A DNA stretch of 64,000 nt from Candidatus Altiarchaeota archaeon. Its GTDB lineage: Archaea; Altiarchaeota; Altiarchaeia; IMC4; QMZM01. The DNA lies in NCBI GenBank assembly GCA_016931955.1, contig JAFGDV010000002.1:38545-102544 (forward strand), in the 5' to 3' direction. The notes under the pieces are model-generated. The model did not search any database. It saw only the letters and a list, made by a program, of their open reading frames with translations, and was not told the DNA's origin. Position numbers and translations under genes: made by a program. Positions 30,780 to 57,862 of this stretch are shown in pieces. Numbering within the stretch: the stretch's first letter is position 1; each line of letters begins with the position of its first letter.

Positions 30780-30797
30780 TTCTCTGAATGCTCGGAA

Positions 30798-32387: not shown

Positions 32388-32403
32388 ATACCACAGTACC
32401 AAA

Positions 32404-35083: not shown

Positions 35084-35084
35084 A

Positions 35085-35687: not shown

Positions 35688-35696
35688 GGAGCAGGG

Positions 35697-36299
35697 ATGG
35701 CACACAACCTAAAACAGGAGATCGGGAAAAACTGGATAATACTTGTGGTGATACCCCATGAGACCTACCCCGACTGCTCAATTGAAGTATCCAAGCAGAT
35801 AGAGCGCATGTACCAAAGGATATGTTACGTGAACACTAACAAGCCCTTCACCACCCTTATGAAGACCTTCAAGGACAAGGGCATAAACACGGAGGGTTTT
35901 TTCTTCATTGATATGGTAACTAGATCTGCTTTCCCAGGCGTGAAAGACGGCCCCATATGTAGATACATATCCTCTGAGTCGGCGTTGGACGAGCTTGGCT
36001 CAGCAATCAATGAAGAGCTGGATAAGGGGGTATATAAGGCATTGATCTTTGACTCCCTGTCTTCACTGCTTGTGCACAACGACGAAGACGTTCTCATAAA
36101 ATTCGTGAAGTTCATTGTGACAAAGATCAGACACTCGGACTGCATCGCTGTTCTTAAATGCGCTGAGGGGGACATCGACTCAAAGCTTATGAAGAATCTA
36201 AGCATGCTCAGCGACAAGATAATACGCCTTAGCACGCACACCGTCATGGGCCTCGACGAGACAATAGTGAGCTGCGACCTTCATAAACCCAAGGCCTAA
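35697..36299 (+). CDS. RecA/KaiC-fold protein lacking Walker A (DUF835-like), paralogue 2
   Basis: CYVNTNK, FFFIDMVT, LIFDSLSSL, LSDKII; colinear with the upstream gene. Confidence 0.6.
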   Translation: MAHNLKQEIGKNWIILVVIPHETYPDCSIEVSKQIERMYQRICYVNTNKPFTTLMKTFKDKGINTEGFFFIDMVTRSAFPGVKDGPICRYISSESALDELGSAINEELDKGVYKALIFDSLSSLLVHNDEDVLIKFVKFIVTKIRHSDCIAVLKCAEGDIDSKLMKNLSMLSDKIIRLSTHTVMGLDETIVSCDLHKPKA

Positions 36300-40314: not shown

Positions 40315-40341
40315 AATAAAAAAAATGTGGAGGAAAAAAAA

Positions 40342-41402: not shown

Positions 41403-41663
41403 ATGAACGAAGAATTTGATTTCAGAGGGAAGATAGATCCAATGCTTACAGTGGAGACGATAAAGAAGGTTAAAGAGTACAGGGCTAAGCTGGACAGCGG
41501 CGAAATAAAGGAGGAGGTTGTCCTTTCCTTTACTATCGACCATCAACCTGCGACGAGAAGCATTCCAGACACCCTGTCTAAGACGGGTCTCGGAGATTAT
41601 AGGATATTGAGGGCGAAGGATAAGCAATTATGGAAGATCGTGGTAACGTTAAAGAAAACATAG
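41403..41663 (+). CDS. TusA/SirA-like protein without the catalytic Cys
   Basis: FDFRGKIDPM aligns to the TusA DxRGxxCPx motif, plus DHQPATRSIP and terminal WKIVV; contains no Cys. Confidence 0.6.
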   Translation: MNEEFDFRGKIDPMLTVETIKKVKEYRAKLDSGEIKEEVVLSFTIDHQPATRSIPDTLSKTGLGDYRILRAKDKQLWKIVVTLKKT

Positions 41664-41674
41664 GAGGTAAAAAA

Positions 41675-42829
41675 ATGGTTGAAGACTGGGAAGAAATCGA
41701 ACGCGGAACGGGGGCCAAGGCGGCAGCCCGTGTAAAAACTGAGTCAATGAGTACCCCCACAATCGGTAGAACAAAGAAGACCGGCGTTAGGACTAAGTTG
41801 ATGCTGGCTTTTATAGCGACTGCAGTTATACCTGTTCTTGTGATGAGCGTATCCCTGTGGATGATGGCCGGGGATATCAACAATTTCATGACAGACAACG
41901 CACAGGAAAAAGTCAACACGTTTTATGGGATAACTGACCAAGTATATCAGAGCGAGATGCATAACGTGAAGGAAACTGCAATAGCGGCGGCTTCATTAGA
42001 CTCTGTCGCTGATCTGGTACAGGGTACCGGTAACAAGGATAGTGTGAGAAAGATCCTGTTGGGATTACAGAGTGCTGAGGAAGTCGGCTATTTGACGGTG
42101 TTAGATGCAAGCGGTAGGGTTGTGCTCAGGTCTAATCCAAACTCTGCCTCAGGTGATACAAAATCAGATGCATGGATCAGGACTGCCTTAGCAGGAACTG
42201 CGACAGTATCCTCTGAGGTGCTTAATGCAAACACCCTCGCAGAGTATGGACTTGACGTGCAATCAAAGTTGTTTTTAATCACAACTGATAACGCCAAACC
42301 GACGAGTAGAACAGTGGAGACCTCGAGCTTGTCCATAGTCGCCGCCGCACCCATAAAGGATAGCACAGGACGTGTTATTGGCGCAGTTGAAGTCGGTGAA
42401 CCCCTAACAAGGAATTATAAGATAGTGGATAACGCCAAGGACATATATGGTACAAGCGGCAGTCCAACAGTTACTATCTTCCAGGATGATCTGCGGATTT
42501 CAACGAACGTTAAGACAAAAGGCGGTTCAAGGGCAATCGGTACGCGTGTGTCTGTGCCAGTGTATGAACAGGTTTTAACCAGGGGCCAAGAATATGTGGG
42601 ACGCGCATTCGTCGTAAACGACTGGTATATGACATTGTATAAGCCAATAAAGAGCGGAGGCGGCAGTACTGTTGGAATACTCTATGTGGGTCTCCTTGAG
42701 AGGGATATTAAGACAGACATTGGAAACTTTATCTCCCAACAGGTTTCTAACCGGATACTTTTCGGTGGAGTGATTGCTTTTATATTAGCTATGCTTTGTA
42801 TGTGGCTCTACCTGAGAGGGTTGGAATAA
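41675..42829 (+). CDS. Stand-alone TM-Cache-TM protein without cytoplasmic output domain (2)
   Basis: Paralogue of 40342; same Cache motif; ends YLRGLE after TM2; GGAGGT before ATG 41675. Confidence 0.8.
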   Translation: MVEDWEEIERGTGAKAAARVKTESMSTPTIGRTKKTGVRTKLMLAFIATAVIPVLVMSVSLWMMAGDINNFMTDNAQEKVNTFYGITDQVYQSEMHNVKETAIAAASLDSVADLVQGTGNKDSVRKILLGLQSAEEVGYLTVLDASGRVVLRSNPNSASGDTKSDAWIRTALAGTATVSSEVLNANTLAEYGLDVQSKLFLITTDNAKPTSRTVETSSLSIVAAAPIKDSTGRVIGAVEVGEPLTRNYKIVDNAKDIYGTSGSPTVTIFQDDLRISTNVKTKGGSRAIGTRVSVPVYEQVLTRGQEYVGRAFVVNDWYMTLYKPIKSGGGSTVGILYVGLLERDIKTDIGNFISQQVSNRILFGGVIAFILAMLCMWLYLRGLE

Positions 42830-43045: not shown

Positions 43046-43516
43046 GTGTCGATAATGAGGGAAATAATAGGTATTGGAAACGACTTATTCGGCGACGACG
43101 GTTTCGGTCCAATGGTGGTGGGCTACATAAAAGCCAACTACATGCTGGCTCCAGATGTTGAAGTAATCGATGCAGGGTCTTCTCCCGACTTTCTATTGAA
43201 CGAACTCCTGGAGACCGAAACCAAGAGGATTATCATAATAGACGTCTTCGATAACGGAGGGGTTCCTGGTGAGATATCGATACTCTCCTCAGAGGATCTG
43301 CCGGATGTTTTCCCTCAACGGCTCACACATAATATGCCAATAGCGGAGATAATAAGAGAGCTATCTAACAGCAGAGACATGGACATCAAGGTGATCGCGT
43401 GCCAACCAGAGAAAATAACCGTCCCGGACGTGTGCGTCGGCCTATCTAAGCCCCTCGTCGACGCCGTACCCAAGGCTGCTGATCTAGCCGTCAGGTTAAT
43501 CAATCAGGATAATTAG
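43046..43516 (+). CDS. Hydrogenase maturation endopeptidase (FrhD-like)
   Basis: GIGNDLFGDDGFG, IDAG, IIDV, LTHNMP. Confidence 0.88.
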   Translation: MSIMREIIGIGNDLFGDDGFGPMVVGYIKANYMLAPDVEVIDAGSSPDFLLNELLETETKRIIIIDVFDNGGVPGEISILSSEDLPDVFPQRLTHNMPIAEIIRELSNSRDMDIKVIACQPEKITVPDVCVGLSKPLVDAVPKAADLAVRLINQDN

Positions 43517-43784: not shown

Positions 43785-44333
43785 GTGTTTAGGATGGTAA
43801 TCAAAAGAGAAACGTACACCGATTACGAGATAGAGTTCGCGATGAGGGAGAAGGAAGACTTCGAGAAATCGATGCAGGCCCTGATGGACATTGTCGGCGC
43901 AACAGTAAGCACTCTCGAATCGGTGGCTGGGATGGGTGCCAGAGCCATGAGCTACATGGCGGGCAAGAACATCGGCAAGAGGATAGGTAGAATGATCGGC
44001 AGAAAACCCGACGTTGAAACCGCGATAGATGCCCTCACAGACCTGATGGGCGACGCGTGGAAGATCGAAATATGGAAGCCTGCAACCGAAAAGGAATTGG
44101 TGAAGAAGACTGACAAAGGCTTCCAGTGCAAGCTTCTCTTCAGGGACTGCATAGTAAGGCAGACCCTTGAGAGGGAGGCGATACCGCAGAAGGGGACCAT
44201 GTGCTACCTCACCAATGGATACGTGTGCGGAGCCTTGGAGGTGATGCTTGGAATGCGCGGCAAACTTGATTTCCTCCACAGCGGAAACAACGCTTGCCTG
44301 AAGGATCTGAATTTAACTAGGGAGGGCGTGTAA
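43785..44333 (+). CDS. V4R (4-vinyl reductase-like) domain protein
   Basis: FRDCIVR, TMCYLTNGYVCGALE, NACL; AGKNIGKRI helix typical of the family. Confidence 0.75.
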   Translation: MFRMVIKRETYTDYEIEFAMREKEDFEKSMQALMDIVGATVSTLESVAGMGARAMSYMAGKNIGKRIGRMIGRKPDVETAIDALTDLMGDAWKIEIWKPATEKELVKKTDKGFQCKLLFRDCIVRQTLEREAIPQKGTMCYLTNGYVCGALEVMLGMRGKLDFLHSGNNACLKDLNLTREGV

Positions 44334-44334
44334 A

Positions 44335-45315
44335 ATGGCTAAGACAACACTGGCCTATGTCGCGGGAGCGATATGCGGCGGATGCGCCACCACCATGCTC
44401 GATGTTCACGAGGAGCTTCCAGACCTCTTAGAAAAAATCGATATCGTTTATAATACGTTGTTAATGGATGTAAAAAAGATCCCCGAATGCGACATCGGCG
44501 TGTGGGGCGGGACCGTAAGGACCGATGAACACAGAGAGCAGCTGATTGAGCTGAGGGGGAAGTGCAAGACACTTATCGCCTTCGGGACATGTGCCGTATA
44601 TGGCGGCATCCCCGGGCTGAGCTTCTACTGGCCCATATCCGAGTTACTTAAAAAAGTCTACACCGGTACTAAGGGCATCACCAACGGAACCCCACCCAAG
44701 CAGGATGTCCCCAACCTGATGAGGGAGCTGTATCCAGCCGACCAGGTTGTTGAGGTAGACTACTACATGCCAGGTTGCCCTTGTCCGCCAGACTGGTTCA
44801 TGAAAGCTGTTGAAGCACTCCTCGAAGGCAAGGTGTCTGAGCTCAGGCATAAAACAGTCTGCTCCGAGTGTCCGAGAAGGATGACTCGTCCAGTGAATTT
44901 CCCGATAAAGAGGAAGATTGGGAAATTCGACGACACCGTCGTTAAAACAGAGAAGGACGGAACTGTAAGGCACAGATGCTTCCTGTCTCAGGGGATACTC
45001 TGCCTTGGCTCTGTGACAATCAATAGATGCGGGGCCTCCTGTCAACTGCATAATATGCCCTGCTCCGGATGCTCTGGCCCGTCCCTCGAGGTTTTGAGGG
45101 AACAGGGAAGGGACCCACTGCTCATGATTGCGAAGAGGATGGCCATCCTCTCCGGGCAGGACCCTGAAGCCATCATCAGCGGGCAAATACCACAGGATAT
45201 CATAGACCAGTTCTACGACATAAAACACCAGTTTTACGGGTATATCTCAACCCATCCCGCATTGTGGAAGAAAGCAGCTTCAAAGATACCCGACCTAGTG
45301 GAGGTTGAAAAATGA
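44335..45315 (+). CDS. [NiFe]-hydrogenase small subunit (MvhG-like)
   Basis: CGGC, GTCAVYGGIPG, PGCP, CSEC, CFLSQGILCLG-RCGASC-PCSGC. Confidence 0.9.
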   Translation: MAKTTLAYVAGAICGGCATTMLDVHEELPDLLEKIDIVYNTLLMDVKKIPECDIGVWGGTVRTDEHREQLIELRGKCKTLIAFGTCAVYGGIPGLSFYWPISELLKKVYTGTKGITNGTPPKQDVPNLMRELYPADQVVEVDYYMPGCPCPPDWFMKAVEALLEGKVSELRHKTVCSECPRRMTRPVNFPIKRKIGKFDDTVVKTEKDGTVRHRCFLSQGILCLGSVTINRCGASCQLHNMPCSGCSGPSLEVLREQGRDPLLMIAKRMAILSGQDPEAIISGQIPQDIIDQFYDIKHQFYGYISTHPALWKKAASKIPDLVEVEK

Positions 45316-46748
45316 GCGAGATAATAATAGACCCCATGACGAGGTTGGAGGGTCACGGAAAGGTTACCATCGAACTAGACGACGGAGGCAAGGTGAAGGA
45401 TGCAAGGTTCTCGATAGTCTACCTGAGAGGCTTTGAGAAGTTCCTTGAAGGCTGCGCCCTGGAGGATCTTCCAAAGTTCACCCCAAGGATATGCGGCGTC
45501 TGCCCGGTCGCACATCACATGGCGAGTGCCAAGGCATGTGACGCAGTCCTAAAAGCCAAGCTGACGGAGACCGGAGAAAAGATCAGACGCCTATGGTACG
45601 CAGTCAACGGCGTGCACGACAAGATGTTGATATTAGCGGGCACAGGCGCTCCAGATCTGTTGCTGCCGGATGCAAACCAGAAGACGAGGAACGTGATAAC
45701 CTTGATAACGAAGAACCCTGAGCTCGGTAAGAAGATCCTCGAACTAAGGAAGTTCGGCCAAGAGAGTAATAGAGTAATATCAGGAAAAGCCATCCACCCA
45801 TTTACTGCAGTACCTGGCGGCGTCTCCTTCAAGGTGACAGAGGACCAAGTCAAACAGATCAAAAAGCTGGGGAAGAACGCACTACATATTGCAACAGAGG
45901 TGGTAGAGCTGATAAAGGATAAAACCTATGAACTTGTAGAAAAAAAAGGCGACCTCTTGGAGAAATTAGGTAATGTCGAGACGAACTACTTGGGTTTGAG
46001 GGCTTCGGATGGGACAAGCGACCACTATGATGGCGATGTTGCTTTCATGGATTCAAAGGGGAAGATCACGGAATTCCATCCATCGGATTACCTGAATTAT
46101 CTGGCTGAGAACACCTCTGATTACTCCTTCGGCAAGTATCCCTACTGGAAGGCCTTAGGTTTCCCTGAGGGGATCATAAGGGTCGGTCCACTAGCGAGGT
46201 TGAATGTTGCTGAGAAACTGAGCACACCTAAGGCGCAGGAGTACTTTGAAGACTTCAGGAAATCCTTCGGCAGACCAGCGCATGTGACCATGCTATACCA
46301 CTACGCCCGCGCTATCGAGTTGTTGAATTGTGCGGAGATGGCAATGGACCTCTTAGATGATCCCGCAATTCTAGGTGACGACACCATAGGCAGCATGGGT
46401 CCGCTTGGAGCAGGTCAAGGCGTTGGCATAGTGGAAGCCCCAAGAGGGACTTTAATACACCACTATGAGACAGACGAAAAGGGTCTTGTAAAGGACATCA
46501 ACCTGATTGTTGCCACGACATTCAACAATGCACCAATAGACAGGGATATCAAGGCTGCATCTCAGAAGCTGATAACCAGCAAGTCGCCTAATGAGAAGAT
46601 ACTGAACACTATAGAGATGGTTGCAAGGGCATATGATCCCTGCCTCTCATGTGCTGCACACAGCGTTGACGGCGGCTATCCCCTGAAGATAGAGATATAT
46701 GACTCGGAGGGTAATAGGGTGGGGGAGATAAGCAATACACGGAGGTGA
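45312..46748 (+). CDS. mvhA: [NiFe]-hydrogenase large subunit, MvhA/group 3c-like, intact active site
   Basis: TRLEGH, L1 RICGVCPVAH, EAPRG, L2 RAYDPCLSCAAH followed by a cleavable C-terminal extension. Confidence 0.92.
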   Translation: MSEIIIDPMTRLEGHGKVTIELDDGGKVKDARFSIVYLRGFEKFLEGCALEDLPKFTPRICGVCPVAHHMASAKACDAVLKAKLTETGEKIRRLWYAVNGVHDKMLILAGTGAPDLLLPDANQKTRNVITLITKNPELGKKILELRKFGQESNRVISGKAIHPFTAVPGGVSFKVTEDQVKQIKKLGKNALHIATEVVELIKDKTYELVEKKGDLLEKLGNVETNYLGLRASDGTSDHYDGDVAFMDSKGKITEFHPSDYLNYLAENTSDYSFGKYPYWKALGFPEGIIRVGPLARLNVAEKLSTPKAQEYFEDFRKSFGRPAHVTMLYHYARAIELLNCAEMAMDLLDDPAILGDDTIGSMGPLGAGQGVGIVEAPRGTLIHHYETDEKGLVKDINLIVATTFNNAPIDRDIKAASQKLITSKSPNEKILNTIEMVARAYDPCLSCAAHSVDGGYPLKIEIYDSEGNRVGEISNTRR

Positions 46749-47611: not shown

Positions 47612-47932
47612 ATGGCAGACGATAAATCCATGCTTGTCAGGATAATGGGTGACCACCCAAGCATCAGGATCCTGGACTTCCTGATAGACAACAAGAACTT
47701 CGACTACTCCAAAACGGACGCCTGTGAGGGGGCTAACGTGAGCCCAGGCTCTTTATACAAGATCTGGCACAATCTGGAGGAATCAGAGATCGTCGTAAAG
47801 ACGAGACAGTATGGTGCGACAAAACTTTACAGGCTGAACAAGGAAAACCCATTAGTCAAAAAGTTGCTGGAATTGGATCTAGAATTATGTAGACAGTATG
47901 CGCAATTCGAAGCCGCTTCTACGCCGGCATAA
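47612..47932 (+). CDS. Winged-helix DNA-binding protein
   Basis: RILDFLI-SKTD-SLYKIW-LEESEIV-TKLYRLN pattern. Confidence 0.7.
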   Translation: MADDKSMLVRIMGDHPSIRILDFLIDNKNFDYSKTDACEGANVSPGSLYKIWHNLEESEIVVKTRQYGATKLYRLNKENPLVKKLLELDLELCRQYAQFEAASTPA

Positions 47933-48328
47933 TCAAGCATTCCTTAGCTTCTCTGCTTCTTTGTTGAGGTCTACTTCCGTCTTAGGGTAGTTGCTCTGCG
48001 GGAATCCACTGATACCATCTCCTTCCTTTGAAGGGAACAACGCTATGTGTAAATGATGTATTCTCCCGCCTCGGATGAACATGCACACGTAATCGGGCTT
48101 ATAGGTTTTCTTTATCTTCTTAGCGACCTTCTTCGCCGCAGTGAATAATCTTCCTAAATCCCCATCATCCATCTCATAGAATCTCTCCACGTGTTTCTTC
48201 GGCACCAACAGGCAGTGCCCTGGAGCACAGGGCTGAATATCCAGTACGCCTACACAGAAGTCGTCCTCGTAGACCCTCCAAGACCCTATCTCTCCCCTAA
48301 CCAGCTTACACAGTATGCAGTCTCCCAT
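47933..48328 (-). CDS. HIT family nucleotide hydrolase (third His of the triad replaced)
   Basis: CILC N-terminus, LDIQPCAPGHCLLVPKKH, HHLHIALFP. Confidence 0.85.
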   Translation of the reverse strand: MGDCILCKLVRGEIGSWRVYEDDFCVGVLDIQPCAPGHCLLVPKKHVERFYEMDDGDLGRLFTAAKKVAKKIKKTYKPDYVCMFIRGGRIHHLHIALFPSKEGDGISGFPQSNYPKTEVDLNKEAEKLRNA

Positions 48329-48367: not shown

Positions 48368-48381
48368 TAAAGTATTTATAT
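48368..48381 (+). promoter_or_regulatory. BRE/TATA promoter of the histidine-kinase array
   Basis: AAAGTATTTATAT about 25 nt upstream of ATG 48403. Confidence 0.6.
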
Positions 48382-48402
48382 CCTCAAGGAGAAGAAGATA
48401 AT

Positions 48403-49989
48403 ATGTTCTCCAAGTTATTCAATTGGTTGGTTAAGCGGATGCCGTACACTTCCGCCCTTGTCTTGATCTGTTTTACCTGGGCTATCCTGGTCACCGTCTT
48501 CGGAGCCTTACTGGTCATCATCGGCGCCAGGGAAAATTTTGAGGTTACTGGAACCAGAGACCTATATTTGATGCTCTATTTCGGTGGTGTTTCAATGGCT
48601 TCCACCCTCATCCTGATAGAATACAGCATCCTCCGCGTTTTCGGGATCAGGTTTGAGAGGAAAGAGTTCACTCCACTAAACGACAACATCGTGGACGGTC
48701 ACTTCAGAGAGAATATCTCAGATGATGACCTTGTGAAGGCCTACTATGCTCTCGTCAACCTAACCAAGTGGAAGGAGACACGGGATGTCGTCTATGCTCA
48801 GATAGTCGTCTTCGGCGCCGCCTTCGGGGAGTGGCTTATCAGCGGACAGTTGATGAACGTGCCCATCATCTTTGTAGGCAGCGAAATCGCGGTTTTTTCG
48901 CTTTACGTGTATGCTGCCGTCTTCCATGACACCATAACCTCTCCAGCTAGGAGGGAATGCAAGCTTCTCATGGCTGAACGAGGAATACCATTCAAAGAAA
49001 CCCCCATGTTGAGTCTGAGGACTAAGTCAAGGTTCTTCATTGCCTTGATTGGCTTGGCTCTTCTAGCGATCCTTATCCTGATAAAGCCCTTTAATCCGTT
49101 GATTGTGGTCCTCGCCTTGATAACCCTCGCCATAGTCAGCATGTTAAACGACTTCGTATCTAAGTCTATTCAAACAGAATTTGAGGAGATTAAGGAGTCA
49201 GCCCATAGCTTGGCGGAAGGCAAAAAGGCGCTGTTTTTCTCAGGCAGCTCTGACAGGGAGATGTTTGATCTAACGCAGAGTTTGAATAAAACCGCCGGAG
49301 AGATAACAGATTACCAGAGATCCCTTAAAGAAAAGATAAATGAATTGGAGGAGTATATGTCTGTGGCTTCACACGACCTCCAGCAGCCCCTGGCGACGAT
49401 TCAGGCTTATACGCAGATTCTTAAGGTGGTTGAACAGGATGATGAGAAACTGAAGAAAGTCAAGGTCGTTGAATCCCAGGCAGACTTCATGAGGGAGATG
49501 CTCAATGATCTACTGGAGTACTCCCGCGCCAAAAAGACTATGGAATACGAAGAAGTGAAGCTCCATAAAGTCCTTGAGGAAATCAGAGAACACCTGAAAG
49601 TGCAGATACAAGAAAAAGAAGCTAAGATAATATTCAAAGACATTCCTGAAACAATAATAGGACAACCTAAGAGAATAGAGCAACTATTCCTGAACCTAAT
49701 AGGCAATGCAATAAAGTACTCAGACAAACCGATAATAGAAGCAGGCTGCACCGACCGAGAACAGGAATACGAATTCTACGTAAAAGACAACGGAAGAGGA
49801 ATAGAACAAAAATACCACGAAAAAATATTCAAACCATTCTGGAAGCTCGGCAAAGAACCAGGAACCGGAATGGGTCTCGCAATATGCAAAACCGTGGTCG
49901 AAAACCACGGAGGAAAAATCTGGATAGAATCCACCCCAGGAAAAGGCTCAACATTCAAATTCACAATACCAAAAAAACAGGGGGGATGA
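48403..49989 (+). CDS. Membrane sensor histidine kinase HK1 (multi-TM, HAMP-like, HisKA, HATPase)
   Basis: SHDLQQPL H box, NLIGNA N box, DNGRG G1, GTGMGL G2. Confidence 0.92.
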   Translation: MFSKLFNWLVKRMPYTSALVLICFTWAILVTVFGALLVIIGARENFEVTGTRDLYLMLYFGGVSMASTLILIEYSILRVFGIRFERKEFTPLNDNIVDGHFRENISDDDLVKAYYALVNLTKWKETRDVVYAQIVVFGAAFGEWLISGQLMNVPIIFVGSEIAVFSLYVYAAVFHDTITSPARRECKLLMAERGIPFKETPMLSLRTKSRFFIALIGLALLAILILIKPFNPLIVVLALITLAIVSMLNDFVSKSIQTEFEEIKESAHSLAEGKKALFFSGSSDREMFDLTQSLNKTAGEITDYQRSLKEKINELEEYMSVASHDLQQPLATIQAYTQILKVVEQDDEKLKKVKVVESQADFMREMLNDLLEYSRAKKTMEYEEVKLHKVLEEIREHLKVQIQEKEAKIIFKDIPETIIGQPKRIEQLFLNLIGNAIKYSDKPIIEAGCTDREQEYEFYVKDNGRGIEQKYHEKIFKPFWKLGKEPGTGMGLAICKTVVENHGGKIWIESTPGKGSTFKFTIPKKQGG

Positions 49990-49990
49990 G

Positions 49991-50356
49991 ATGGTTAAGG
50001 TTCTCGTAGTTGACGACTATGCTCCGCTTAGAGAGATTGCAGTCATGATCCTGAAGTCTAAGGGTTTCGATGAAGTGTTTGAAGCGGAGAGCCCGGAGGA
50101 GGGGATGAGGTTATTCGAGGAACATAAGCCAGAGCTTGTCATATTAGATATAATAATGCCTGTCACCAATGGAATAGACTTGGCTGCGGAGATCAAGAAA
50201 GTTAATCCAGAAACTAAGGTGGTCATGCTCAGTGTCTTGGGCGAGAACACTCATGGAAAGAAACGAGTAGAGGAGGTGGCTGATCTTTACTTGGTGAAAC
50301 CTTTAACCCATGAAAAAGTCGATAAAATCAAGGAGATACTAGACTCAGGGCCTTGA
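49991..50356 (+). CDS. Single-domain response regulator
   Basis: VVDD, ILDIIMP, MLSV, LVKPL. Confidence 0.9.
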   Translation: MVKVLVVDDYAPLREIAVMILKSKGFDEVFEAESPEEGMRLFEEHKPELVILDIIMPVTNGIDLAAEIKKVNPETKVVMLSVLGENTHGKKRVEEVADLYLVKPLTHEKVDKIKEILDSGP

Positions 50357-50363
50357 TAAAAAA

Positions 50364-52025
50364 ATGTTCTTTAGATTGTTCGAATGGTTGGTGAAGAGGA
50401 CTCCTTATACCCTAGCATTTATTACTCTTGGTTTTTCTTGGACTGCATTGGTTGCGAGTTTTGGCGCTTTATTGATTATCATTGGGGCTGATTTTGAAGC
50501 CACTGGGACAAGGGATATTTTTCTCTTGCTTTTGGCGGAAACGGTAGGAATTGCTTCCTTCCTCACCTTCTGGGAATACGGTATCTTCCGGCTTGTTGGG
50601 ATAAAATGGGAGAGAAGAGAATTCACGGTTCTTAACGAGAATATCATCCAAGGTCATTTTCGGCAGGATGTTTCCAATGAAGCGCTTTTAGAGGCCTATG
50701 ATTCTCTTAAACAAATAACAAGATGGACAGTACTCAAAAATATTCAATACGGTCAGATAGTAGCTTCTTTTACTGCCTTGGGGGAATGGTTGTTTAGTGG
50801 TCAATTAACAAATGTCCCAATCATATTTGTTGGGCTTAACATTGCTACTATTTCACTTTATATATATGGGGCTGTCTTCTATGACTCAATGACCTCCCCA
50901 GCTAGGAGGGAGTGTAAGAGGCTTTTAGCTCAGAGGGGCATTCAATTTGATGAGTCTTCTTTCCTGAGCCTAAGGACTAAATCAAGGTTCTTCCTTACCT
51001 TGATAGGCTTCGCTCTTTTAGCAATGTTGATCATCATCAAGCCATTTAACCCGCTTAGTGTAGTGCTCGCCGTTACTACCTTAGTTATAATCGGCTTACT
51101 GAACGACTTGGTATTTAGGTCTATCTACATGGAATTCACTGAAGTCGAAGAATCGGCCAAGAATCTAGCGGAAGGCAGGGAAGCATTATTTTTCTCAGGC
51201 AGCTCAGACAAAGAAATACTTGACCTGTCAGAGAGCCTGAATGAAACCGCTCAAGAGATCAGGGAATATGAAAAAGCCCTTGAGGAGGAGAAGGCCTCCC
51301 TAGAGATCAAGGTAAAGGATAGAACCAAGGAGTTGGAGGAGCTAACCAAGAGCCTTGAGGAGAAGGTAGAGAAAAGAACCCATGAGCTCCAAGACAGAAT
51401 TGAAGAGCTTGAAGAGTATACTTCTGTTACTTCCCACGACCTGCAACAACCCCTAGCGACAATTCAGGCATATACGCAGCTTAGTGTGCAGAATGCTAAG
51501 GTGATTGAGTCTCAGGCGAACTTCATGAGGAATTTACTTGAGGACTTGTTAAGCTATTCACGGATAAAGGAGAAGGCGCCCTCCGAAGAAGTAAAACTCC
51601 TGGAAGTCTTAGATGAAGCAAAAGAGCACCTGTCAGCGCAGATACAAGAGAAAGAAGCGGAAATAACACTCAAAGACATTCCAGACACCATCACTGGACA
51701 GCCTAAGAGGATAGAGCAACTATTCTTGAACCTGATCGGGAACGCAATAAAATACACTGATGATAAGCCGGTGATTGAAGTAGGATGCACAGAACAAGAA
51801 CAAGAATACCTATTCTGGATCAGAGACAATGGTAGAGGAATCGAACAAAAATACTTCGAGAAAATATTCAAACCCTTCTGGAAGCTCGGCAAAGAACCCG
51901 GAACCGGAATGGGGTTGGCGATCTGCAAAGCAGTAGTGGAAAACCACGGAGGAAAAATCTGGATAGAATCCACCCCAGGAAAAGGCTCAACATTCAAGTT
52001 CACAATACCCAAGAAGAAAACATAG
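50364..52025 (+). CDS. Membrane sensor histidine kinase HK2
   Basis: Same H/N/G boxes; extended coiled-coil linker. Confidence 0.92.
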   Translation: MFFRLFEWLVKRTPYTLAFITLGFSWTALVASFGALLIIIGADFEATGTRDIFLLLLAETVGIASFLTFWEYGIFRLVGIKWERREFTVLNENIIQGHFRQDVSNEALLEAYDSLKQITRWTVLKNIQYGQIVASFTALGEWLFSGQLTNVPIIFVGLNIATISLYIYGAVFYDSMTSPARRECKRLLAQRGIQFDESSFLSLRTKSRFFLTLIGFALLAMLIIIKPFNPLSVVLAVTTLVIIGLLNDLVFRSIYMEFTEVEESAKNLAEGREALFFSGSSDKEILDLSESLNETAQEIREYEKALEEEKASLEIKVKDRTKELEELTKSLEEKVEKRTHELQDRIEELEEYTSVTSHDLQQPLATIQAYTQLSVQNAKVIESQANFMRNLLEDLLSYSRIKEKAPSEEVKLLEVLDEAKEHLSAQIQEKEAEITLKDIPDTITGQPKRIEQLFLNLIGNAIKYTDDKPVIEVGCTEQEQEYLFWIRDNGRGIEQKYFEKIFKPFWKLGKEPGTGMGLAICKAVVENHGGKIWIESTPGKGSTFKFTIPKKKT

Positions 52026-52035
52026 AAGATAAAAA

Positions 52036-53700
52036 ATGTTTTATGGGATATTTAATTGGTTTGTGAAGAGGCTTCCGTATAGTCTAGCAGTGATGATCTT
52101 CAGTTTTATTTTGAGTGCTTTGATGATCGTCTTCGTTGCCTGGTTTATTCTGATCGGGACTGATATTGAGTCTGAAGGAACCGCTGGTGTTGTGATATCC
52201 GCTCTTTTCTTGGCAGGGTTTGTCTCCTTCATATTATGTATCATAGAATACGGTTACGGCATCTCTTTTGGACTGGAGGGGAAAAGAAAGGGTTTCAAGG
52301 TCCTCAACGACAACATCATAGAGGGGCGCATTAGACAGGATATATCTGACCAGGCACTCTTAGAGGTCTACGACGCCCTTAAAAAAATAAACAGGTGGAT
52401 ATTGAGCAGACATATGTTATATGCTAACTCCATAGCAACCGCTGGTGCTTTAGCAGAACTGCTGACAAGTGGGAATTTAATGAATGCAGTTATCATTTGG
52501 GCTATTGGATTAATCTGGGGCAATATAGCAGTCATAACAGGAATCGCCTATGACCTATTCACTCTCCCAGCTAGGCGTGAATGCAAGCTGCTCTTGAATT
52601 CGAGAGGCATCCCCTTCAAGGACGACGCCTATTTCCTTGGTCTTAGGATTAAATCCGACCTATTCATCATCTTAACTGCCTTTGGTTTGGGTGTGATTTT
52701 ATTGATTTTCCGCCCAATCACCTGGGAGCTTGTAGTATCTGCCGCCATCATCCTCCTCACCGTTGTCTTATTAACTAAGCTAGTATTCGAGACCATCTAT
52801 GCCGCGTTATTGGAGATTAAAGACTTAGCCAGTGATCTGGAGCATGGAAGGAAGGTTTCTTTCTTCACCGGCAGCTTGGACCGGGAAATCGTGGACCTGT
52901 CTAAGAGCCTGAATGTCGCAGCTGATGAGATCTACTTTACTAAGAAGGCCCTTGAGGAAGAGAAGACTTCCCTGGAGCTTAAGGTTGAAGATAGGACTAA
53001 GGAGTTGAAGGGACTTAATGAGAGCCTGGAGGAGAAGGTAAAAGAGAGAACTAAAGAGCTTGAGGGGAAGATAGGTGAGTTGGAGGAGTATACCTCCGTC
53101 ACCTCCCATGACCTCCAGCAGCCACTTGCTGCGATTCAAGCCTACACACAGCTCACTCAAAAAAATGCTAAGATGATAGAATCCCAGGCGAACTTCATGA
53201 GAGAGTTGCTTGAGGACTTGTTAAGTTATTCACGAATAAAGGAGAAGGCACCCTCTGAGGAAGTGAAACTCCAAGATATATTGAAAGAGGTAAAAGAACA
53301 CCTGAAAGTGCAGATACAAGAAAAAAACGCAGAGATAACACTCAAAGACATACCTGAAACAATAACAGGACAACCTAAGAGGATAGAGCAACTATTCCTA
53401 AACCTGATCAGCAACGCATTGAAATACACCGACGGAAAAACAACAATTGAGGTCGGCTGCGAGGGGGGAGAGAGGGAATATGAATTCTGGGTGAAGGACA
53501 ATGGTATAGGAATCGAACAAAAATACTTCGAGAAAATATTCAAACCCTTCTGGAAGCTCGGCAAAGAACCCGGAACCGGAATGGGCCTCGCCATATGCAA
53601 AGCAGTAGTGGAAAACCACGGAGGAAAAATCTGGATAGAATCCACCCCAGGAAAAGGCTCAACATTCAAATTCACAATACCCAAGAAAAATGTTCCTTAG
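52036..53700 (+). CDS. Membrane sensor histidine kinase HK3
   Basis: Same H/N/G boxes; extended coiled-coil linker. Confidence 0.92.
   Translation: MFYGIFNWFVKRLPYSLAVMIFSFILSALMIVFVAWFILIGTDIESEGTAGVVISALFLAGFVSFILCIIEYGYGISFGLEGKRKGFKVLNDNIIEGRIRQDISDQALLEVYDALKKINRWILSRHMLYANSIATAGALAELLTSGNLMNAVIIWAIGLIWGNIAVITGIAYDLFTLPARRECKLLLNSRGIPFKDDAYFLGLRIKSDLFIILTAFGLGVILLIFRPITWELVVSAAIILLTVVLLTKLVFETIYAALLEIKDLASDLEHGRKVSFFTGSLDREIVDLSKSLNVAADEIYFTKKALEEEKTSLELKVEDRTKELKGLNESLEEKVKERTKELEGKIGELEEYTSVTSHDLQQPLAAIQAYTQLTQKNAKMIESQANFMRELLEDLLSYSRIKEKAPSEEVKLQDILKEVKEHLKVQIQEKNAEITLKDIPETITGQPKRIEQLFLNLISNALKYTDGKTTIEVGCEGGEREYEFWVKDNGIGIEQKYFEKIFKPFWKLGKEPGTGMGLAICKAVVENHGGKIWIESTPGKGSTFKFTIPKKNVP
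53295..53378 (+). repeat. 84-bp block identical between HK3 and HK5 (second copy 56495-56578)
   Basis: AGAACACCTGAAAGTG through GGACAACCTAA reads identically at both positions. Confidence 0.85.
53508..53585 (+). repeat. 78-bp block identical between HK3 and HK2 (other copy 51836-51913)
   Basis: AGGAATCGAACAAAAATAC through CCGGAATGGG reads identically at both positions. Confidence 0.85.
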
Positions 53701-55321
53701 ACTATTCAACTGGCTGGTTAAGAAAAAGGATGTGCCTTATACCTTTGCAGTGATTTTCCCAGGCAGTTCTTTCGCTATCTTGGGTGCTGTTTTAGGCGGC
53801 ATCATCCTACTCCGCCGAGCCGATTTCGAGTCTACTGGAACTGGGATGATATTCGTCCTCAGTCTTACCCTTCTGATGACTTTCGTCGTTTCGCGTACGC
53901 TTATAAGGGCTGGAGCTCTTAGGGTTTTTGGAACCATTTTAGGGGAGAGGAGAGAGTTTAGTATCCTTAACGACAACATAATCAGCGGCGTTATTCGTTC
54001 TGATGTATCTACCTCAACACTCTTGCAAGTATATGGCTCACTCACTCAATTGAATAATCATATGATGAGGATGCATCTAAGTGACATATGTGTCGTAGTC
54101 CCAAATGTTGCGGCAATAGAGTTCATTGCTAGCTGGTTTATCACTGGTAGCTTCCAGCTTACAAATACCTTAATGATACTTTTGGTCGGAGCCATAATAG
54201 CTGCCTTAGATATCATCTGCGATCTGCCGTTGTGGGAGCTGTCGATTTATCCGACCCGGAAGGGATGTAAGACCCTCTTAGCTGAGAGGGGCGTTCATTT
54301 CGAAGAAACCCACTTCATGAGCTTGAGGGCTAAGTCAAGATTCTTCATCATATTGATGGCTATTATATTGTTGGCTATGTGGACACTCGCTGAATCCCCA
54401 AACCTTGACCTCATAGTTTTTTCTATTATCATCTTATCCCTTACTGTCTTATTAAGCGATATGGTGTTCCAATCATTTTATAAAGCATTCGCTGAGGTTG
54501 AGGAATCCGCAAGAGACCTGGCGAAAGGCAACAAGGTCCTGTTTTTCTCAGGCAGCTCAGACAGGGAAATATTAGATTTGTCAAAGAGCCTGAACATCTC
54601 CGCCGACGAAATCTATTCCACCAGAAAAGAACTTGAACAAGAGAAGCTTTCCCTTCAAGAGAAGATAGATGAACTTGAAGAATATACATCAGTTACGTCA
54701 CATGATCTGCAGCAGCCGTTGGCGACGATCCAAGCCTACACGCAGCTACTTAAGGCTGCGGAAAAGGATGAAGTAAAAAAGAAAAACGTGGACGTAGTAG
54801 AGTCGCAGGCAAATTTCATGCGAAGCCTCCTTGAGGATCTGCTGAATTATTCGAGGATGAAGAAGGAGATGCCTTACGAGGAAGTGGATGTCAAAAAAAT
54901 ATTGGAGGGAGTTAGAGAACACCTCAACCCCGAAATAGAGAAAAAAGAAGCGGAGATAACATTCAGAGATTTGCCCGATAAAATCATCGCACAACGAAAG
55001 GCGATAACACAACTATTCCACAACCTCGTAGACAACGCATTAAAGTACTCAGATGAGAAACCAGTGGTGGAGATAGGCTGCGAAGAACGTGAGCAAGAAT
55101 ATGAATTCTACGTCCGGGACAATGGAATAGGAATAGAAGAACACTTCCACGAGAAGATTTTTAAACCATTCTGGAAGTTGGGTAAAGAACCCGGCACAGG
55201 AATGGGGTTGGCGATCTGTAAAGCCGTGGTAGAAAACCACGGAGGCAGGATATGGGTAGAATCAGAACCCTGGAGGGGGTCAACATTCAAATTCACAATA
55301 CCAAAGAAAAATGTTCTTTAA
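53690..55321 (+). CDS. Membrane sensor histidine kinase HK4
   Basis: SHDLQQPL, NLVDNA, DNGIG, GTGMGL. Confidence 0.92.
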   Translation: MFLRLFNWLVKKKDVPYTFAVIFPGSSFAILGAVLGGIILLRRADFESTGTGMIFVLSLTLLMTFVVSRTLIRAGALRVFGTILGERREFSILNDNIISGVIRSDVSTSTLLQVYGSLTQLNNHMMRMHLSDICVVVPNVAAIEFIASWFITGSFQLTNTLMILLVGAIIAALDIICDLPLWELSIYPTRKGCKTLLAERGVHFEETHFMSLRAKSRFFIILMAIILLAMWTLAESPNLDLIVFSIIILSLTVLLSDMVFQSFYKAFAEVEESARDLAKGNKVLFFSGSSDREILDLSKSLNISADEIYSTRKELEQEKLSLQEKIDELEEYTSVTSHDLQQPLATIQAYTQLLKAAEKDEVKKKNVDVVESQANFMRSLLEDLLNYSRMKKEMPYEEVDVKKILEGVREHLNPEIEKKEAEITFRDLPDKIIAQRKAITQLFHNLVDNALKYSDEKPVVEIGCEEREQEYEFYVRDNGIGIEEHFHEKIFKPFWKLGKEPGTGMGLAICKAVVENHGGRIWVESEPWRGSTFKFTIPKKNVL

Positions 55322-56894
55322 GTTATTCAACTGGCTGGTGAAGAGGGTTCCATATGTATTAGCTGTTTTACTCCCCGTCGACATATGGAGTGTATTAATG
55401 GGAGTTCCAGGCTTTGTCCTTATCTGGGTTCTCGAAATCGATTTAATGGGGAATACCACAACAGGAGGCCAGTTCATCTTTGTCTGGTTTTTCTTTCTTT
55501 TCCTTGCCTTCGTGGGGGCTGCTTTGGAGATGGGTATTCTGAGGCTCTTTGGAATAAAATTTGAGAGAAAACACATAAGGCCTCTTAACGAGAACATCAT
55601 TGATAATCATATTCGGCCGAATATTTCAACACCTGAACTTCAACAAGTTTACTTCGCCCTCAATAAGTTCGATAGGTGGGTGATAAAAACGCATATTAGA
55701 TATGTTTCTGCTGTCGTATTTTGTGACGCTTTTGTGATGGGTTTAATTACCGGCGACTGGGATCTTGCCCTCTTCATCTTCGAGGTCGCATTCCTCAGTG
55801 GTCCTTTGGCTTTGATATGTGGTATCCCTCTTTGGGAGTTGTTTGTGGCTCCCGTACGTAAGGAATGTAAGATGCTTCTACGTCAGAGAGGTGTGGATTT
55901 TGAGGAAAAGCCGTTCATGAGCTTGAGGATTAAGTCGAAGTTTTTCACTATCTTGGTTGGTTTTTCTCTTTTGGCGTTCTTAATTCTCCTCCGTTCCTGG
56001 GATCCTTTTTTTATAGTATTTACGATTATCATCTTACTTATCCTTGCTTTTCTAAGCGACTTGATATTTAAATCAATCTACTCCGCCTTCTTAGAAATCG
56101 AGGAATCTGCCAAGAATCTGGCTGAAGGAAAGAGCGTATCATTCTTTTCAGGCAGCTTTGATAAGGAGATACTTGACTTATCACAAAGCCTAGACGAAAC
56201 CGCTGGAGAGATAAGAGACTACCAGAAATCCCTTGAAGAAAAGATAAAGGAGTTGGAGGAGTACATGTCTGTTGCTTCACACGACCTGCAACAGCCCCTT
56301 GCTGCGATCCAGGCCTACACTCAACTTCTTAAATCGGTCGAAATGAACGAAACAGGTAAAAGGAATGTGGGAGTGATTGAGTCTCAGGCAGACTTCATGC
56401 GCGATCTACTGAACGATCTGCTGGAGTATTCTAGGGCGAAGAAGACCATGGAATACGAGAAAGTGAAGCTCAGAGAGGTCTTGGAAGAAGTCAGAGAACA
56501 CCTGAAAGTGCAGATACAAGAAAAAAACGCAGAGATAACACTCAAAGACATACCTGAAACAATAACAGGACAACCTAAAAGAATCAGTCAATTATTCCTG
56601 AACCTCATAAGCAACGCAATAAAATACACCGAAGGAAAGCCAGTGGTTGAGGCAGGCTGCGTGGAGAGAGAGGAGGAATATGAATTCTGGGTGAAGGACA
56701 ATGGTATAGGAATCGAAGAGAAATACTTCAACAAAATATTCAAACCCTTCTGGAAACTGGGAAAAGAACCCGGAACCGGAATGGGGTTGGCGATCTGCAA
56801 AGCCGTGGTCGAAAACCACGGAGGCAGAATCTGGATAGAATCAGAACCAGGAAAAGGCTCAACATTCAAATTCACAATAGAGAAGAGGAGTTAA
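55311..56894 (+). CDS. Membrane sensor histidine kinase HK5
   Basis: SHDLQQPL, NLISNA, DNGIG, GTGMGL. Confidence 0.92.
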   Translation: MFFKLFNWLVKRVPYVLAVLLPVDIWSVLMGVPGFVLIWVLEIDLMGNTTTGGQFIFVWFFFLFLAFVGAALEMGILRLFGIKFERKHIRPLNENIIDNHIRPNISTPELQQVYFALNKFDRWVIKTHIRYVSAVVFCDAFVMGLITGDWDLALFIFEVAFLSGPLALICGIPLWELFVAPVRKECKMLLRQRGVDFEEKPFMSLRIKSKFFTILVGFSLLAFLILLRSWDPFFIVFTIIILLILAFLSDLIFKSIYSAFLEIEESAKNLAEGKSVSFFSGSFDKEILDLSQSLDETAGEIRDYQKSLEEKIKELEEYMSVASHDLQQPLAAIQAYTQLLKSVEMNETGKRNVGVIESQADFMRDLLNDLLEYSRAKKTMEYEKVKLREVLEEVREHLKVQIQEKNAEITLKDIPETITGQPKRISQLFLNLISNAIKYTEGKPVVEAGCVEREEEYEFWVKDNGIGIEEKYFNKIFKPFWKLGKEPGTGMGLAICKAVVENHGGRIWIESEPGKGSTFKFTIEKRS

Positions 56895-56937
56895 GCTATT
56901 TATAGGATAAACCCCAATAAAATATATTCTACTCAGA

Positions 56938-57318
56938 ATGGAATCGAAGGTCCTCATAATAACATTGGTAGTCGACGACTATGCTCCGCTGAGGGAAGCT
57001 GCTGTCGAGATCTTGAGGTCGAAGGGTTTCAGAAACATCTTTGAGGCGGAAACCCCTGAGGAAGGTATGGATTTGGTCAGAGAACATAAACCCGACCTCG
57101 TCATCTTGGACATAATCATGCCTAGTATAAGGGGGATAGATCTGATAGACGACGTCAAAAAGATTAGTCCAGAAACCAAGGTGGTGATGTTGAGCGTTTT
57201 AAGCGGAGAAGCCACCATACAGGAGTCAATGACTAAGGGAGCTGACCTCTATCTGGTGAAACCCTTGACTCCAACAAAAGTCGACGAGATCAAGAAAGTG
57301 CTTAGGGTACAAACATAA
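56938..57318 (+). CDS. Single-domain response regulator (paralogue of 49991)
   Basis: VVDDYAPLRE, ILDIIMP, YLVKPL. Confidence 0.9.
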   Translation: MESKVLIITLVVDDYAPLREAAVEILRSKGFRNIFEAETPEEGMDLVREHKPDLVILDIIMPSIRGIDLIDDVKKISPETKVVMLSVLSGEATIQESMTKGADLYLVKPLTPTKVDEIKKVLRVQT

Positions 57319-57331
57319 CATTTCCCCTGCA

Positions 57332-57862
57332 TCATTTTTTATCGCATACGTAGATGTTCACGCCCTCAATTGAGTTTTTACTGTATTTGCCGAGTTTTTT
57401 TAGCTCAGACTCCAGCCACCTGAAGTCGACCATCTCATACCCAGAGGGATGTGTTTTCTTGAATCTCGTAGCCGAGTAGTCTGCTATCACCACCTTCTCC
57501 CTCGCGACCCTGAACATTTCTCGGACGCATTTCCCTCGGTCTTCAGAGGCGATGTGGTGAAGCGCTCCATAGCATATCACTGCATCAAATGAGTCGTCAG
57601 GATAGGATAGGGAGGTAACGTCCCCTCTCTTGAAGTCTATTCCACGTATCTCGGACGCTTCGGCCTTCTTCTTATACCTCAGAAGCCTTTTATCGTCTAA
57701 GTCTATGGAGGTTACCTTGCAGCCGTAGTCTCTGACTGCGATGAATGCCAGAGGCCCGGCCCCAATATCCAACACGCTCTTGTTCCATAAATCCGCCTCC
57801 CTGAGGACCACAGCCCTCAACCTGAGTCTCTCTTCCTCATCCATTTCACGGCTAAAATCCAA
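57332..57862 (-). CDS. Class I SAM-dependent methyltransferase
   Basis: VLDIGAG motif I, SIDLD, GDVTSLSYPDDSFDAV, ALHH. Confidence 0.88.
   Translation of the reverse strand: MDFSREMDEEERLRLRAVVLREADLWNKSVLDIGAGPLAFIAVRDYGCKVTSIDLDDKRLLRYKKKAEASEIRGIDFKRGDVTSLSYPDDSFDAVICYGALHHIASEDRGKCVREMFRVAREKVVIADYSATRFKKTHPSGYEMVDFRWLESELKKLGKYSKNSIEGVNIYVCDKK

Follow-up and report, generated by a model that had tools for sequence, protein, structure and literature searches.

Five tandem histidine kinases with an uncatalogued six-helix membrane sensor lie beside two output-less receivers in an altiarchaeal genome

The stretch analysed here, 64,000 nucleotides of contig JAFGDV010000002.1 from a Candidatus Altiarchaeota archaeon (hereafter the window), comes from a sediment metagenome and carries an array of five membrane histidine kinases (HK) and two response regulators (RR). 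The seven genes follow one another on the + strand in the order HK1-RR1-HK2-HK3-HK4-HK5-RR2, with successive intergenic gaps of 1, 7, 10, -11, -11 and 43 nt; every position and strand in the open reading frame (ORF) list agrees with the layout described by the original prediction, which had been made from the letters of the window alone. In a five-way alignment, the kinases are 52-67% identical overall. Kinases accompanied by stand-alone receivers are a familiar kind of system in an archaeon; the sensor module that precedes the kinase core, with its six transmembrane (TM) helices, is new. The seven genes of the array are the following:

48403-49989, + strand: HK1, 528 amino acids (aa); six-TM sensor module at aa 1-252, putative divergent HAMP at 253-310, dimerization and histidine phosphotransfer domain (DHp) at 311-380 (H324), catalytic and ATP-binding domain (CA) at 381-528.
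49991-50356, + strand: RR1, 121 aa; single receiver (REC) domain with D8, D9, D53, S81, Y100 and K103.
50364-52025, + strand: HK2, 553 aa; architecture as in HK1, plus a coiled-coil insertion of ~36 aa (S-helix-like, 'RTKEL') at the HAMP/DHp junction.
52036-53700, + strand: HK3, 554 aa; most divergent sensor of the array; coiled-coil insertion as in HK2; DHp 90% identical to the HK2 DHp.
53690-55321, + strand: HK4, 543 aa; 11-nt overlap with HK3; least homogenised CA (67-71% identical to those of the other window kinases).
55311-56894, + strand: HK5, 527 aa; 11-nt overlap with HK4.
56938-57318, + strand: RR2, 126 aa; REC domain only; shares 62% identity with RR1.

Pfam recognises only HisKA and HATPase_c in the kinases, within the C-terminal ~210 residues of each: HisKA is found in all five with E values of 1.8e-7 to 1.4e-12, and HATPase_c at about 1e-27. 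The H-box (S323-H324-D-L-Q-Q-P-L) and the N, G1, F and G2 boxes (NLIxNAxKY, DNGxGI, FKPFWK and GTGMGLAIC, respectively) are invariant. Both response regulators match Response_reg alone (E of 8e-23 for RR1 and 8e-25 for RR2) and, as predicted, are single-domain proteins with a complete phospho-acceptor pocket, in which D8, D9, D53, S81, Y100 and K103 are all conserved. Given these intact boxes and receiver residues, all seven proteins look functional at the sequence level.

The six TM helices of the sensor were found both by hydropathy and in an AlphaFold2 model of residues 1-305, built on a 30-sequence family alignment (predicted local distance difference test score, pLDDT, 88; predicted template modelling score, pTM, 0.84). 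A short amphipathic N-terminal helix is followed by TM1 (15-41), TM2 (52-73), TM3 (about 129-147), TM4 (152-173), TM5 (205-225) and TM6 (233-252). The three external loops measure only 4-10 residues each. On the other side, the TM2-TM3 loop (~55 residues) contains the LN(D/E)NI motif and a small hairpin, with TM3 and TM4 prolonged in the model as long helices into the side of this loop, and the TM4-TM5 loop (~30 residues) carries P-A-R-R-E-C-K. The positive-inside rule places the N-terminus and both long loops in the cytoplasm; in the model, these two loops would form a conserved cytoplasmic mini-domain of ~100 residues, with both termini of the sensor also cytoplasmic. The five-way alignment leaves M1, F2, F6, W8, V10, K11, L92, N93, N95, I96, P181, R183, C186, K187, L189, R193 and G194 invariant, which bears out the three signatures first read from the sequence, namely the shared N-terminus, LN(D/E)NI and PxRxxCKxLLxxRG.

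Beyond TM6, the model shows one helix at 233-271 (TM6 and AS1), a loop at 272-284 and a further helix from 285 onward (AS2) running into the DHp. Segment 253-310 therefore has the arrangement expected of a HAMP domain, with AS1, a connector of ~14 residues and AS2 straight after the last TM helix. Its description as HAMP-like finds no backing at the Pfam threshold, as HK2 alone matches PF00672 (E 0.1, 13.4 bits versus a cut-off of 25), but it is supported by hhalign, which aligns the segment with the HAMP of Pfam-positive kinases at 90.7% probability (E 1.2e-6, 57 columns in register) and pairs D-x-E-I-x-x-L-x-x-x-L-N with DEIGxLAxxFN of those kinases. NCBIfam whole-kinase models (EnvZ, CpxA, CreC, MtrB and TorS) also align from TM6 onwards. 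We thus treat the segment as a likely divergent HAMP. In a full-length model (pLDDT 74), AS2 runs uninterrupted into DHp alpha-1, and in Foldseek the core comes closest to HK853, ZraS and CpxA-HDC.

The TM helices are strongly diverged, as had been noticed from the sequence: TM1-TM4 are 16-31% identical among distant paralogues, versus 75-76% for DHp and CA. The claim of near-identical cores applies to the last ~50 residues only; overall, the five kinases are 67-90% identical in DHp and 67-84% in CA at the protein level, and 71-85% in DNA.

Analysis of residues 1-250 of the five kinases revealed no Pfam family at E<=0.1, and the NCBIfam scans of the N-terminus gave only noise. No N-terminal family was common to 85 relatives scanned with Pfam, and the named multi-TM sensor domains (MASE1-5, 5TMR-LYT, 7TMR-DISM, MHYT and HisKA_7TM) gave no profile match over the membrane region. 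In Foldseek, the sensor model found nothing in the PDB below an E of 0.27, with TM-scores of about 0.2. A sequence-profile search of the PDB returned a single marginal match, of TM5-TM6-AS1 to the membrane hairpin and HAMP start of Aer (E 0.075, below significance); in Aer, unlike in the array kinases, sensing relies on a cytoplasmic PAS-FAD domain and output on an MCP domain. The suspicion that the TM sensor has no name is thus sustained: it has no Pfam, NCBIfam or PDB counterpart and belongs to none of the well-described families searched. The JGI label 'YjjP/DUF1212' carried by one relative (P0011) is unsupported, no family being common to the N-terminal region of the 85 relatives in Pfam.

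The HK1 sensor recovered one relative only in a word-indexed search of proteins, and the family surfaced through an exhaustive search with a hidden Markov model (HMM). Among 1.84 billion cluster representatives, 166 proteins matched at E<=1e-3, 112 at E<=1e-10 and 33 at E<=1e-30, most of them end to end. One and the same profile matches end to end the five kinases, three archaeal relatives and about 160 bacterial clusters. The hallmarks of the family are the amphipathic N-terminal helix, the six TM helices, the LN(D/E)NI loop, an R(R/K)ECK helix and the FFSGSxD(K/R)E connector of the HAMP. The C-terminal outputs in the 85 relatives are varied, with HisKA/HATPase_c in 27, the PP2C phosphatase SpoIIE in 17 and the diguanylate cyclase domain GGDEF in 4, besides PAS, GAF, TPR and REC; the top 150 members include about 40 short proteins of 330-400 aa, which end in a coiled coil without a recognised output. 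The sensor is therefore a real, rare, modular and uncatalogued six-TM input domain. Outside the archaea, the module occurs mainly in Patescibacteria (CPR) and Spirochaetota: named members belong to Patescibacteria/Paceibacterota and Spirochaetota, and family loci occur in metagenome-assembled genomes (MAGs) of Minisyncoccales and Parcubacteria. A profile scan of genomes yielded three family loci, all from the candidate phyla radiation (CPR), and a metagenome scan added two short CPR-like contigs. The bacterial contigs L001-L003, which each carry a family member, also encode RF-1, EF-Ts, L25 and L31.

Several of these bacterial members are of interest in themselves. The small CPR-like proteins (P0006-P0031 type, 30-37% G+C; for example L012 3496-4659, L013 678-1823 and L006 10001-11065) join the six-TM sensor and HAMP to a coiled coil of the 'RTKEL' type and a tail conserved as ELERFxxLxxGRE(L/I)KMxELKKKI; Pfam finds no domain in these proteins. 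P0001 (292 aa; 10001-10879 on L001-L003), about 60% identical to the HK1 sensor, ends within the HAMP connector and is followed by a 59-aa ORF; its gene, located between PPDK and a class-V FBPase on a bacterial contig, encodes either a sensor-only protein or a decayed kinase. On L012, a family member disrupted into two ORFs of 183 and 171 aa (2315-3467) lies directly upstream of the intact 387-aa copy at 3496-4659, so that the sensor family has undergone tandem duplication outside the archaeon as well. Lastly, the runs HK-REC-REC-HK-REC-REC-sensorHK (L004, 5566-11938) and HK-REC-REC-sensorHK (L005, 7798-12016), in Minisyncoccales and Parcubacteria MAGs, indicate that several kinases beside several output-less receivers recur in the bacterial relatives.

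Full-length relatives of the array kinases are scarce, as a search of 5.8 billion clusters returned only three outside the window, all of them on contigs syntenic with it; exact look-ups of HK1 and HK3 gave no match. L008 reads GDE(-), IsoDH(-), an HK1 orthologue (P0154, 68% identical) and then a minus-strand gene. On L009, LeuD(-) is followed by orthologues of HK2 (P0155, 71%, which also has the coiled-coil insertion) and of RR2 (73%). L007 carries HypD-HypE-HycI-GDE-IsoDH, then a kinase of HK1/2-like type and, truncated where the contig stops, an orthologue of HK4 (70%). On these short contigs, kinases thus occur singly or in pairs, at two distinct loci, and the five-kinase array is so far unique to the window genome.

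Two further contigs, L010 and L011, encode a DHp-CA core 50-67% identical to that of the array together with an RR2-like receiver (68.5% identical in L010 and 65.6% in L011), but the N-terminus in front of the core is of another type, in which 2 TM helices and an extracytoplasmic domain accompany a canonical HAMP. The kinase-receiver pair of L011 lies between the same IsoDH/LeuB and LeuD genes, with a FIST protein just upstream. The archaeal lineage thus has the core and receiver as resident components, onto which the six-TM module was swapped as an alternative sensor. The array is in part a routine lineage expansion, one half of what the original prediction had named as its refutation: expansion of kinase families with a change of sensor is a common and well-documented pattern (PMC1630713).

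The synonymous divergence (dS) between all paralogues is saturated in the sensor, HAMP and DHp (>1.6 or undefined), so the duplications are old. The ratio of nonsynonymous to synonymous divergence (dN/dS) is 0.06-0.30 throughout, which gives no gene-wide sign of positive selection; selection of this kind could have acted at single sites. Orthologous sensors are 70% (HK1 and L008), 74% (HK2 and L009) and 74% (HK4 and the second kinase of L007) identical, versus 34-60% among the window paralogues, and over TM1-4 the orthologues reach 53-86% where distant paralogues stay at the low values given above. Between the same genomes, orthologous sensors are as conserved as, or more conserved than, aNOP56, whose L007 and window copies are 61% identical. 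The TM bundles are thus subtype-specific and constrained, neither drifting nor rapidly diversifying. What had been proposed as a diversifying intramembrane sensor family is instead a set of sensors anciently diversified, now stable and kept by purifying selection.

The kinase core has followed another course. The CA domains of HK1, HK2, HK3 and HK5 are 79-84% identical to one another (80-82% between HK1 and the other three), while window kinases are only 63-64% identical to their own orthologues over this domain. In L007, the two adjacent kinases share 36% identity in their sensors and 98% in their DHp. The dS of CA among HK1, HK2, HK3 and HK5 is 0.47-0.92. This grouping of CA and DHp by genome, together with the low CA dS, argues for gene conversion of the kinase core, and the similar cores indicate concerted evolution rather than recent duplication.

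Comparison with the bacterial members revealed that the array sensors are as far from one another as from their bacterial counterparts. The HK2 sensor is 62.7% identical to that of the Minisyncoccales protein P0004 versus 58.8% to that of HK1, and the HK1 sensor is 59.4% identical to bacterial P0001. For HK4 and HK5 the best sensor matches are bacterial-type proteins at 41-43% (for HK5, the best match outside the array is P0010, at 42.8%). The G+C content is 43.8% in the array, 47.5% in the rest of the window and 30-41% at the CPR loci. The six-TM module probably came from bacteria: the diversity of the family and its typically bacterial partner domains favour a transfer from bacteria to archaea, although we infer both the direction and the number of transfers. 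A bacterial origin of archaeal two-component systems is accepted in general (PMC5847659); our literature searches on two-component transfer in Patescibacteria found nothing specific.

With somewhat better than even confidence, we propose that the array consists of five old sensor subtypes, likely derived from a bacterial module that replaced the resident sensor, set on gene-converted cores and pooling their signals through RR1 and RR2. In the archaeal lineage, the six-TM module would have taken the place of a 2-TM sensor of the periplasmic type in a kinase-receiver pair that was already resident. Five distinct sensors, almost wholly embedded in the membrane, would then act through the divergent HAMP on a common DHp-CA core of the HK853 type, and gene conversion within each genome would keep these cores alike and the five kinases matched to RR1 and RR2. 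In this way, five different membrane-borne or membrane-interface signals could be pooled into one phospho-receiver output, which would act by protein-protein contact.

The DHp helix around the phosphorylated histidine and the receiver alpha-1 helix form the main surface of partner specificity, according to work on residue co-variation. DHp helix 1, SHDLQQPLA(T/A)IQAYTQ, is identical in the five kinases except at the T/A position, and alpha-1 is near-identical in RR1 and RR2 (DDYAPLRExAVxIL(K/R)SKGF). Together with the homogenised cores, these features suggest that the five kinases phosphorylate RR1 and RR2. The architecture itself fits several sensors feeding shared receivers, as first proposed, and the convergence of all five kinases on both receivers is the step that we deduce from these sequences. 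The nature of the signals is likewise deduced, from the tiny external loops, which point to a cue in or at the membrane or to a partner membrane protein; a cytoplasmic cue could also act, through the conserved cytoplasmic mini-domain.

Some observations weigh against this proposal. The residues conserved across the family lie mostly in the cytoplasmic loops, so the sensing site could be cytoplasmic. HK1-RR1 and HK2 to HK5 with RR2 could be two separate modules. The low dS of CA could partly come from codon constraints instead of gene conversion. The neighbour-joining tree that interleaves archaeal and CPR sensors carries no support values, and within it only the interleaving of HK1 and HK2 is backed by clear identity differences. 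The direction of transfer is taken only from where the diversity of the family is located, and the taxonomy available covers just a handful of family members, all of those bacterial. A metatranscriptome from the same study (X3) gave no coverage of the locus.

The most serious competitor, doubtful in our view yet plausible, is that the array juxtaposes two insulated and separately evolved pairs, in which HK1 would serve RR1, and HK2-HK5 or a subset of them would serve RR2. HK1 and RR1 are separated by 1 nt, like a classical pair, RR2 has a TATA-like element of its own (described below), and the receivers share the modest identity already given; the pieces also occur at different loci in the relatives, with the HK1 orthologue next to IsoDH without a receiver in L008 and the HK2-RR2 orthologues alone next to LeuD in L009. 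Insulation is difficult to reconcile, however, with specificity surfaces that vary at a single position around the phosphorylated histidine of the five kinases and hardly at all in alpha-1 of the receivers, or with a homogenisation of cores that extends across the whole array and includes the CA of HK1.

Shared cores could have a further consequence, which we regard as unlikely: as gene conversion keeps the DHp helices near-identical (90% between HK2 and HK3, 98% in the L007 pair), paralogues might form heterodimers, and the five subtypes would then give up to fifteen dimers acting on one receiver pool, that is, a combinatorial membrane sensor.

Less likely still is a reading in which the variable TM helices are a drifting anchor, a single cue is perceived through the conserved cytoplasmic mini-domain and the paralogues are redundant or dosage copies. 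The invariant or family-wide residues N93, L110, R183, C186, K187 and L190 do lie in predicted cytoplasmic loops, and dN/dS shows no sign of adaptive change. Nevertheless, F46 and N152, also conserved family-wide, lie in short external loops; the level of TM1-4 identity between orthologues, set against the 61% of aNOP56, reveals subtype-specific purifying selection; and the distinct subtypes predate the separation of the compared genomes and have been kept ever since.

The original prediction had also suggested that the array feeds the chemotaxis network, and it counted six stand-alone REC proteins in the window. The count is correct, but the link to the Che/CheC proteins finds no support, and we consider it very improbable that the array is a chemotaxis input branch with RR1 and RR2 as extra CheY-like proteins or as phosphate sinks served by CheC phosphatases. 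The window does contain two Che clusters (five CheC-like, two CheD and four CheY), and CheY_Halo is the best NCBIfam match of both receivers. These matches score only 76.5 (RR1) and 72.4 bits (RR2) against a cut-off of 200, however, and RR1 and RR2 are just 28-34% identical to the four CheYs of the window. Their genes lie outside any che cluster, the nearest Che gene being about 14 kb away with unrelated genes in between, and L007 keeps the kinases while the Che/Mvh block (25634-36296) is missing at the syntenic place. Only about 1/7 of archaeal REC-only proteins are encoded in chemotaxis operons, and REC-only receivers make up about 40% of archaeal response regulators (PMC5847659), so the lack of an output domain in RR1 and RR2 is unremarkable. 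No histidine phosphotransfer (Hpt) domain or output-domain response regulator was found in or beside the array, the sole Hpt of the window belonging to CheA.

The chemotaxis genes themselves present some unusual features. The block at 25634-36296 (~10.7 kb) encodes an Mvh-type hydrogenase (MvhD/G/A-like), a ParA/MinD-like ATPase, CheC, two CheY, CheA, CheC, CheD, CheR and three KaiC-like/DUF7504 proteins; in L007, HycI is followed directly by GDE and IsoDH, and the block looks like an insertion or deletion polymorphism. The five CheC-like phosphatase genes are located at 17588-18262, 18276-18896, 19379-20032, 29322-29972 and 32323-33081. Within 20 kb, the Che set thus comprises five CheC-like proteins, two CheD, four CheY and CheB for only one CheA, one CheW and one Cache-MCP, which is unusually CheC-rich for one locus.

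Finally, that strain variants or dispersed paralogues were mis-joined through similar 3' ends is extremely improbable: the sequence does come from a metagenome assembly and Logan unitigs do break near the conserved 3' ends, but the copies are too different in DNA for mis-assembly (59-69% identical overall, 76-85% in the most similar 254-nt tails), Logan contigs, an independent assembly of the source run, recover parts of the array at an even depth of about 37-40x and span the RR1/HK2, HK2/HK3 and RR2/downstream junctions, the stop/start overlaps of 11 nt tie HK3 to HK4 and HK4 to HK5, and L007, from a different sample, likewise holds two adjacent kinases.

In structure, the DHp-CA core is most similar to HK853 from Thermotoga maritima, with a Foldseek E of about 1e-12 and 31-32% identity. 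Its cognate partner, RR468, is a stand-alone REC domain like RR1 and RR2. HK853 is nevertheless a single kinase with a 2-TM periplasmic sensor and no HAMP, whereas the array combines five kinases, a six-TM module and the putative divergent HAMP. The convergence proposed here resembles that of KinA-E on Spo0F in Bacillus subtilis and of LuxN, LuxQ and CqsS on LuxU in Vibrio, where several kinases serve one small phospho-acceptor without an output domain, although in the array this convergence is a deduction. The sensors in these two systems are different, with KinB, LuxN and CqsS being multi-TM. The Kin and Lux kinases are dispersed and have unrelated sensor folds, while the array places its kinases in tandem, all of them paralogues from a single sensor family whose cores have undergone gene conversion; the Kin and Lux kinases also feed a defined relay from Hpt or Spo0B to an output response regulator, which has no nearby equivalent in the array.

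Like the BceS/LiaS, AgrC, DesK and LytS types, the array sensor lies nearly wholly within the membrane and exposes only very short loops on the outside, and BceS is among the structural matches of the array kinase through the part from the TM helices and HAMP-like segment to DHp and CA. Intramembrane-sensing kinases of the BceS/LiaS type have two TM helices, a linker under 25 aa and a dedicated accessory transporter or membrane protein nearby. The array kinases share only the short external loops with them, as they have six TM helices and two conserved cytoplasmic inserts, and no ABC transporter, LiaF or Agr genes are adjacent. AgrC likewise joins a variable membrane sensor to a conserved kinase, but its variation is allelic between strains while that of the array is paralogous.

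In archaea, FilI-FilR1/FilR2 and LtrK-LtrR (Galperin et al. 2018, PMC5847659) also rely on a bacterial-type kinase that was probably transferred, and the archaeal systems described in that study resemble the array in their REC-only receivers and presumed protein-protein output. Cytoplasmic PAS/GAF proteins account for 62% of archaeal kinases (PMC5847659), unlike the array kinases, which are polytopic membrane proteins with an undescribed sensor. Literature searches on histidine kinases or chemotaxis in Altiarchaeota found nothing specific.

What deserves recording at this locus is the uncatalogued six-TM domain, its presence in CPR bacteria as well as in an Altiarchaeota-like archaeon, and the concerted evolution of cores beside stable sensor subtypes. 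The signalling repertoire gains a membrane input domain that folds confidently, nearly all of whose members come from organisms in which signalling has hardly been studied by experiment (CPR bacteria and Altiarchaeota-like archaea), and the locus offers a clear case of a sensor module that an archaeon has in common with CPR bacteria, with about 60% identity. It also displays mosaic evolution within one gene, with sensors behaving as stable orthologues and kinase cores homogenised per genome, the reverse of the insulation that two-component pairs usually reach after duplication. The proposal makes a testable prediction, namely that RR1 and RR2 are common to all five kinases. Should the kinases form heterodimers, they would run counter to the rule by which kinases, once duplicated, become insulated through divergence, and the input module of such a combinatorial sensor, having crossed between domains, would work in the ester-lipid membranes of bacteria and in the ether-lipid membranes of archaea alike.

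As the host is archaeal, transcription signals were sought by a simple scan for TATA and oligo-T motifs, which located three elements:

48375-48382, + strand: TATA-like element TTTATATC; the ATG of HK1 lies 28 nt downstream.
56899-56906, + strand: second TATA-like element TTTATAGG; located in the gap of 43 nt between HK5 and RR2, with the ATG of RR2 39 nt downstream.
57335-57340, + strand: T6 run, 17 nt past the RR2 stop; it falls within the methyltransferase gene that converges on the array, at the 3' end of that gene.

The first element lies in a 74-nt divergent intergenic region common to HK1 and the HIT gene and is a candidate archaeal promoter for a leaderless or very short-leader transcript. 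The description of the array as standing behind one clear promoter thus agrees with this box at the motif level, but the second box, a possible separate RR2 promoter, qualifies it. The T6 run is a candidate archaeal oligo-T terminator.

Elsewhere in the window, an Rfam scan found no RNA. The genes encode an archaeal-type phosphoglycerate mutase, Mvh-type hydrogenase subunits, DUF7504 proteins and aNOP56 (Nop), whose best matches named Altiarchaeota or Altiarchaeales are at most 57% identical, while the closest matches overall reach 77%. The neighbours of the array are LeuD, a winged helix-turn-helix protein, a HIT protein, a methyltransferase and FeoAB. The interval between LeuD and HK1 (47612-48328) holds a 106-aa winged-helix-like protein, with no Pfam match at 1e-5, and a divergent gene of the HIT family; both are absent from L009, where LeuD abuts the HK2 orthologue. 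The small DNA-binding-like protein of this interval is a conceivable partner of the receivers.

Two Cache-only proteins with no recognisable output domain (sCache_3_3 / Cache_3-Cache_2) are encoded on the + strand at 40327-41388 and 41630-42829, downstream of a 294-aa protein at 39430-40314 (+) that has no Pfam match. The three genes sit between IsoDH and the hydrogenase gene set, and the output-less Cache proteins could be accessory inputs to membrane kinases. The window carries two separate sets of NiFe-hydrogenase small and large subunits, at 25634-28366 (-) and 43785-46748 (+), one of them with an MvhD-like gene, as well as two HycI-type maturation proteases (25121-25639 and 43046-43516) and HypA/B/D/E.

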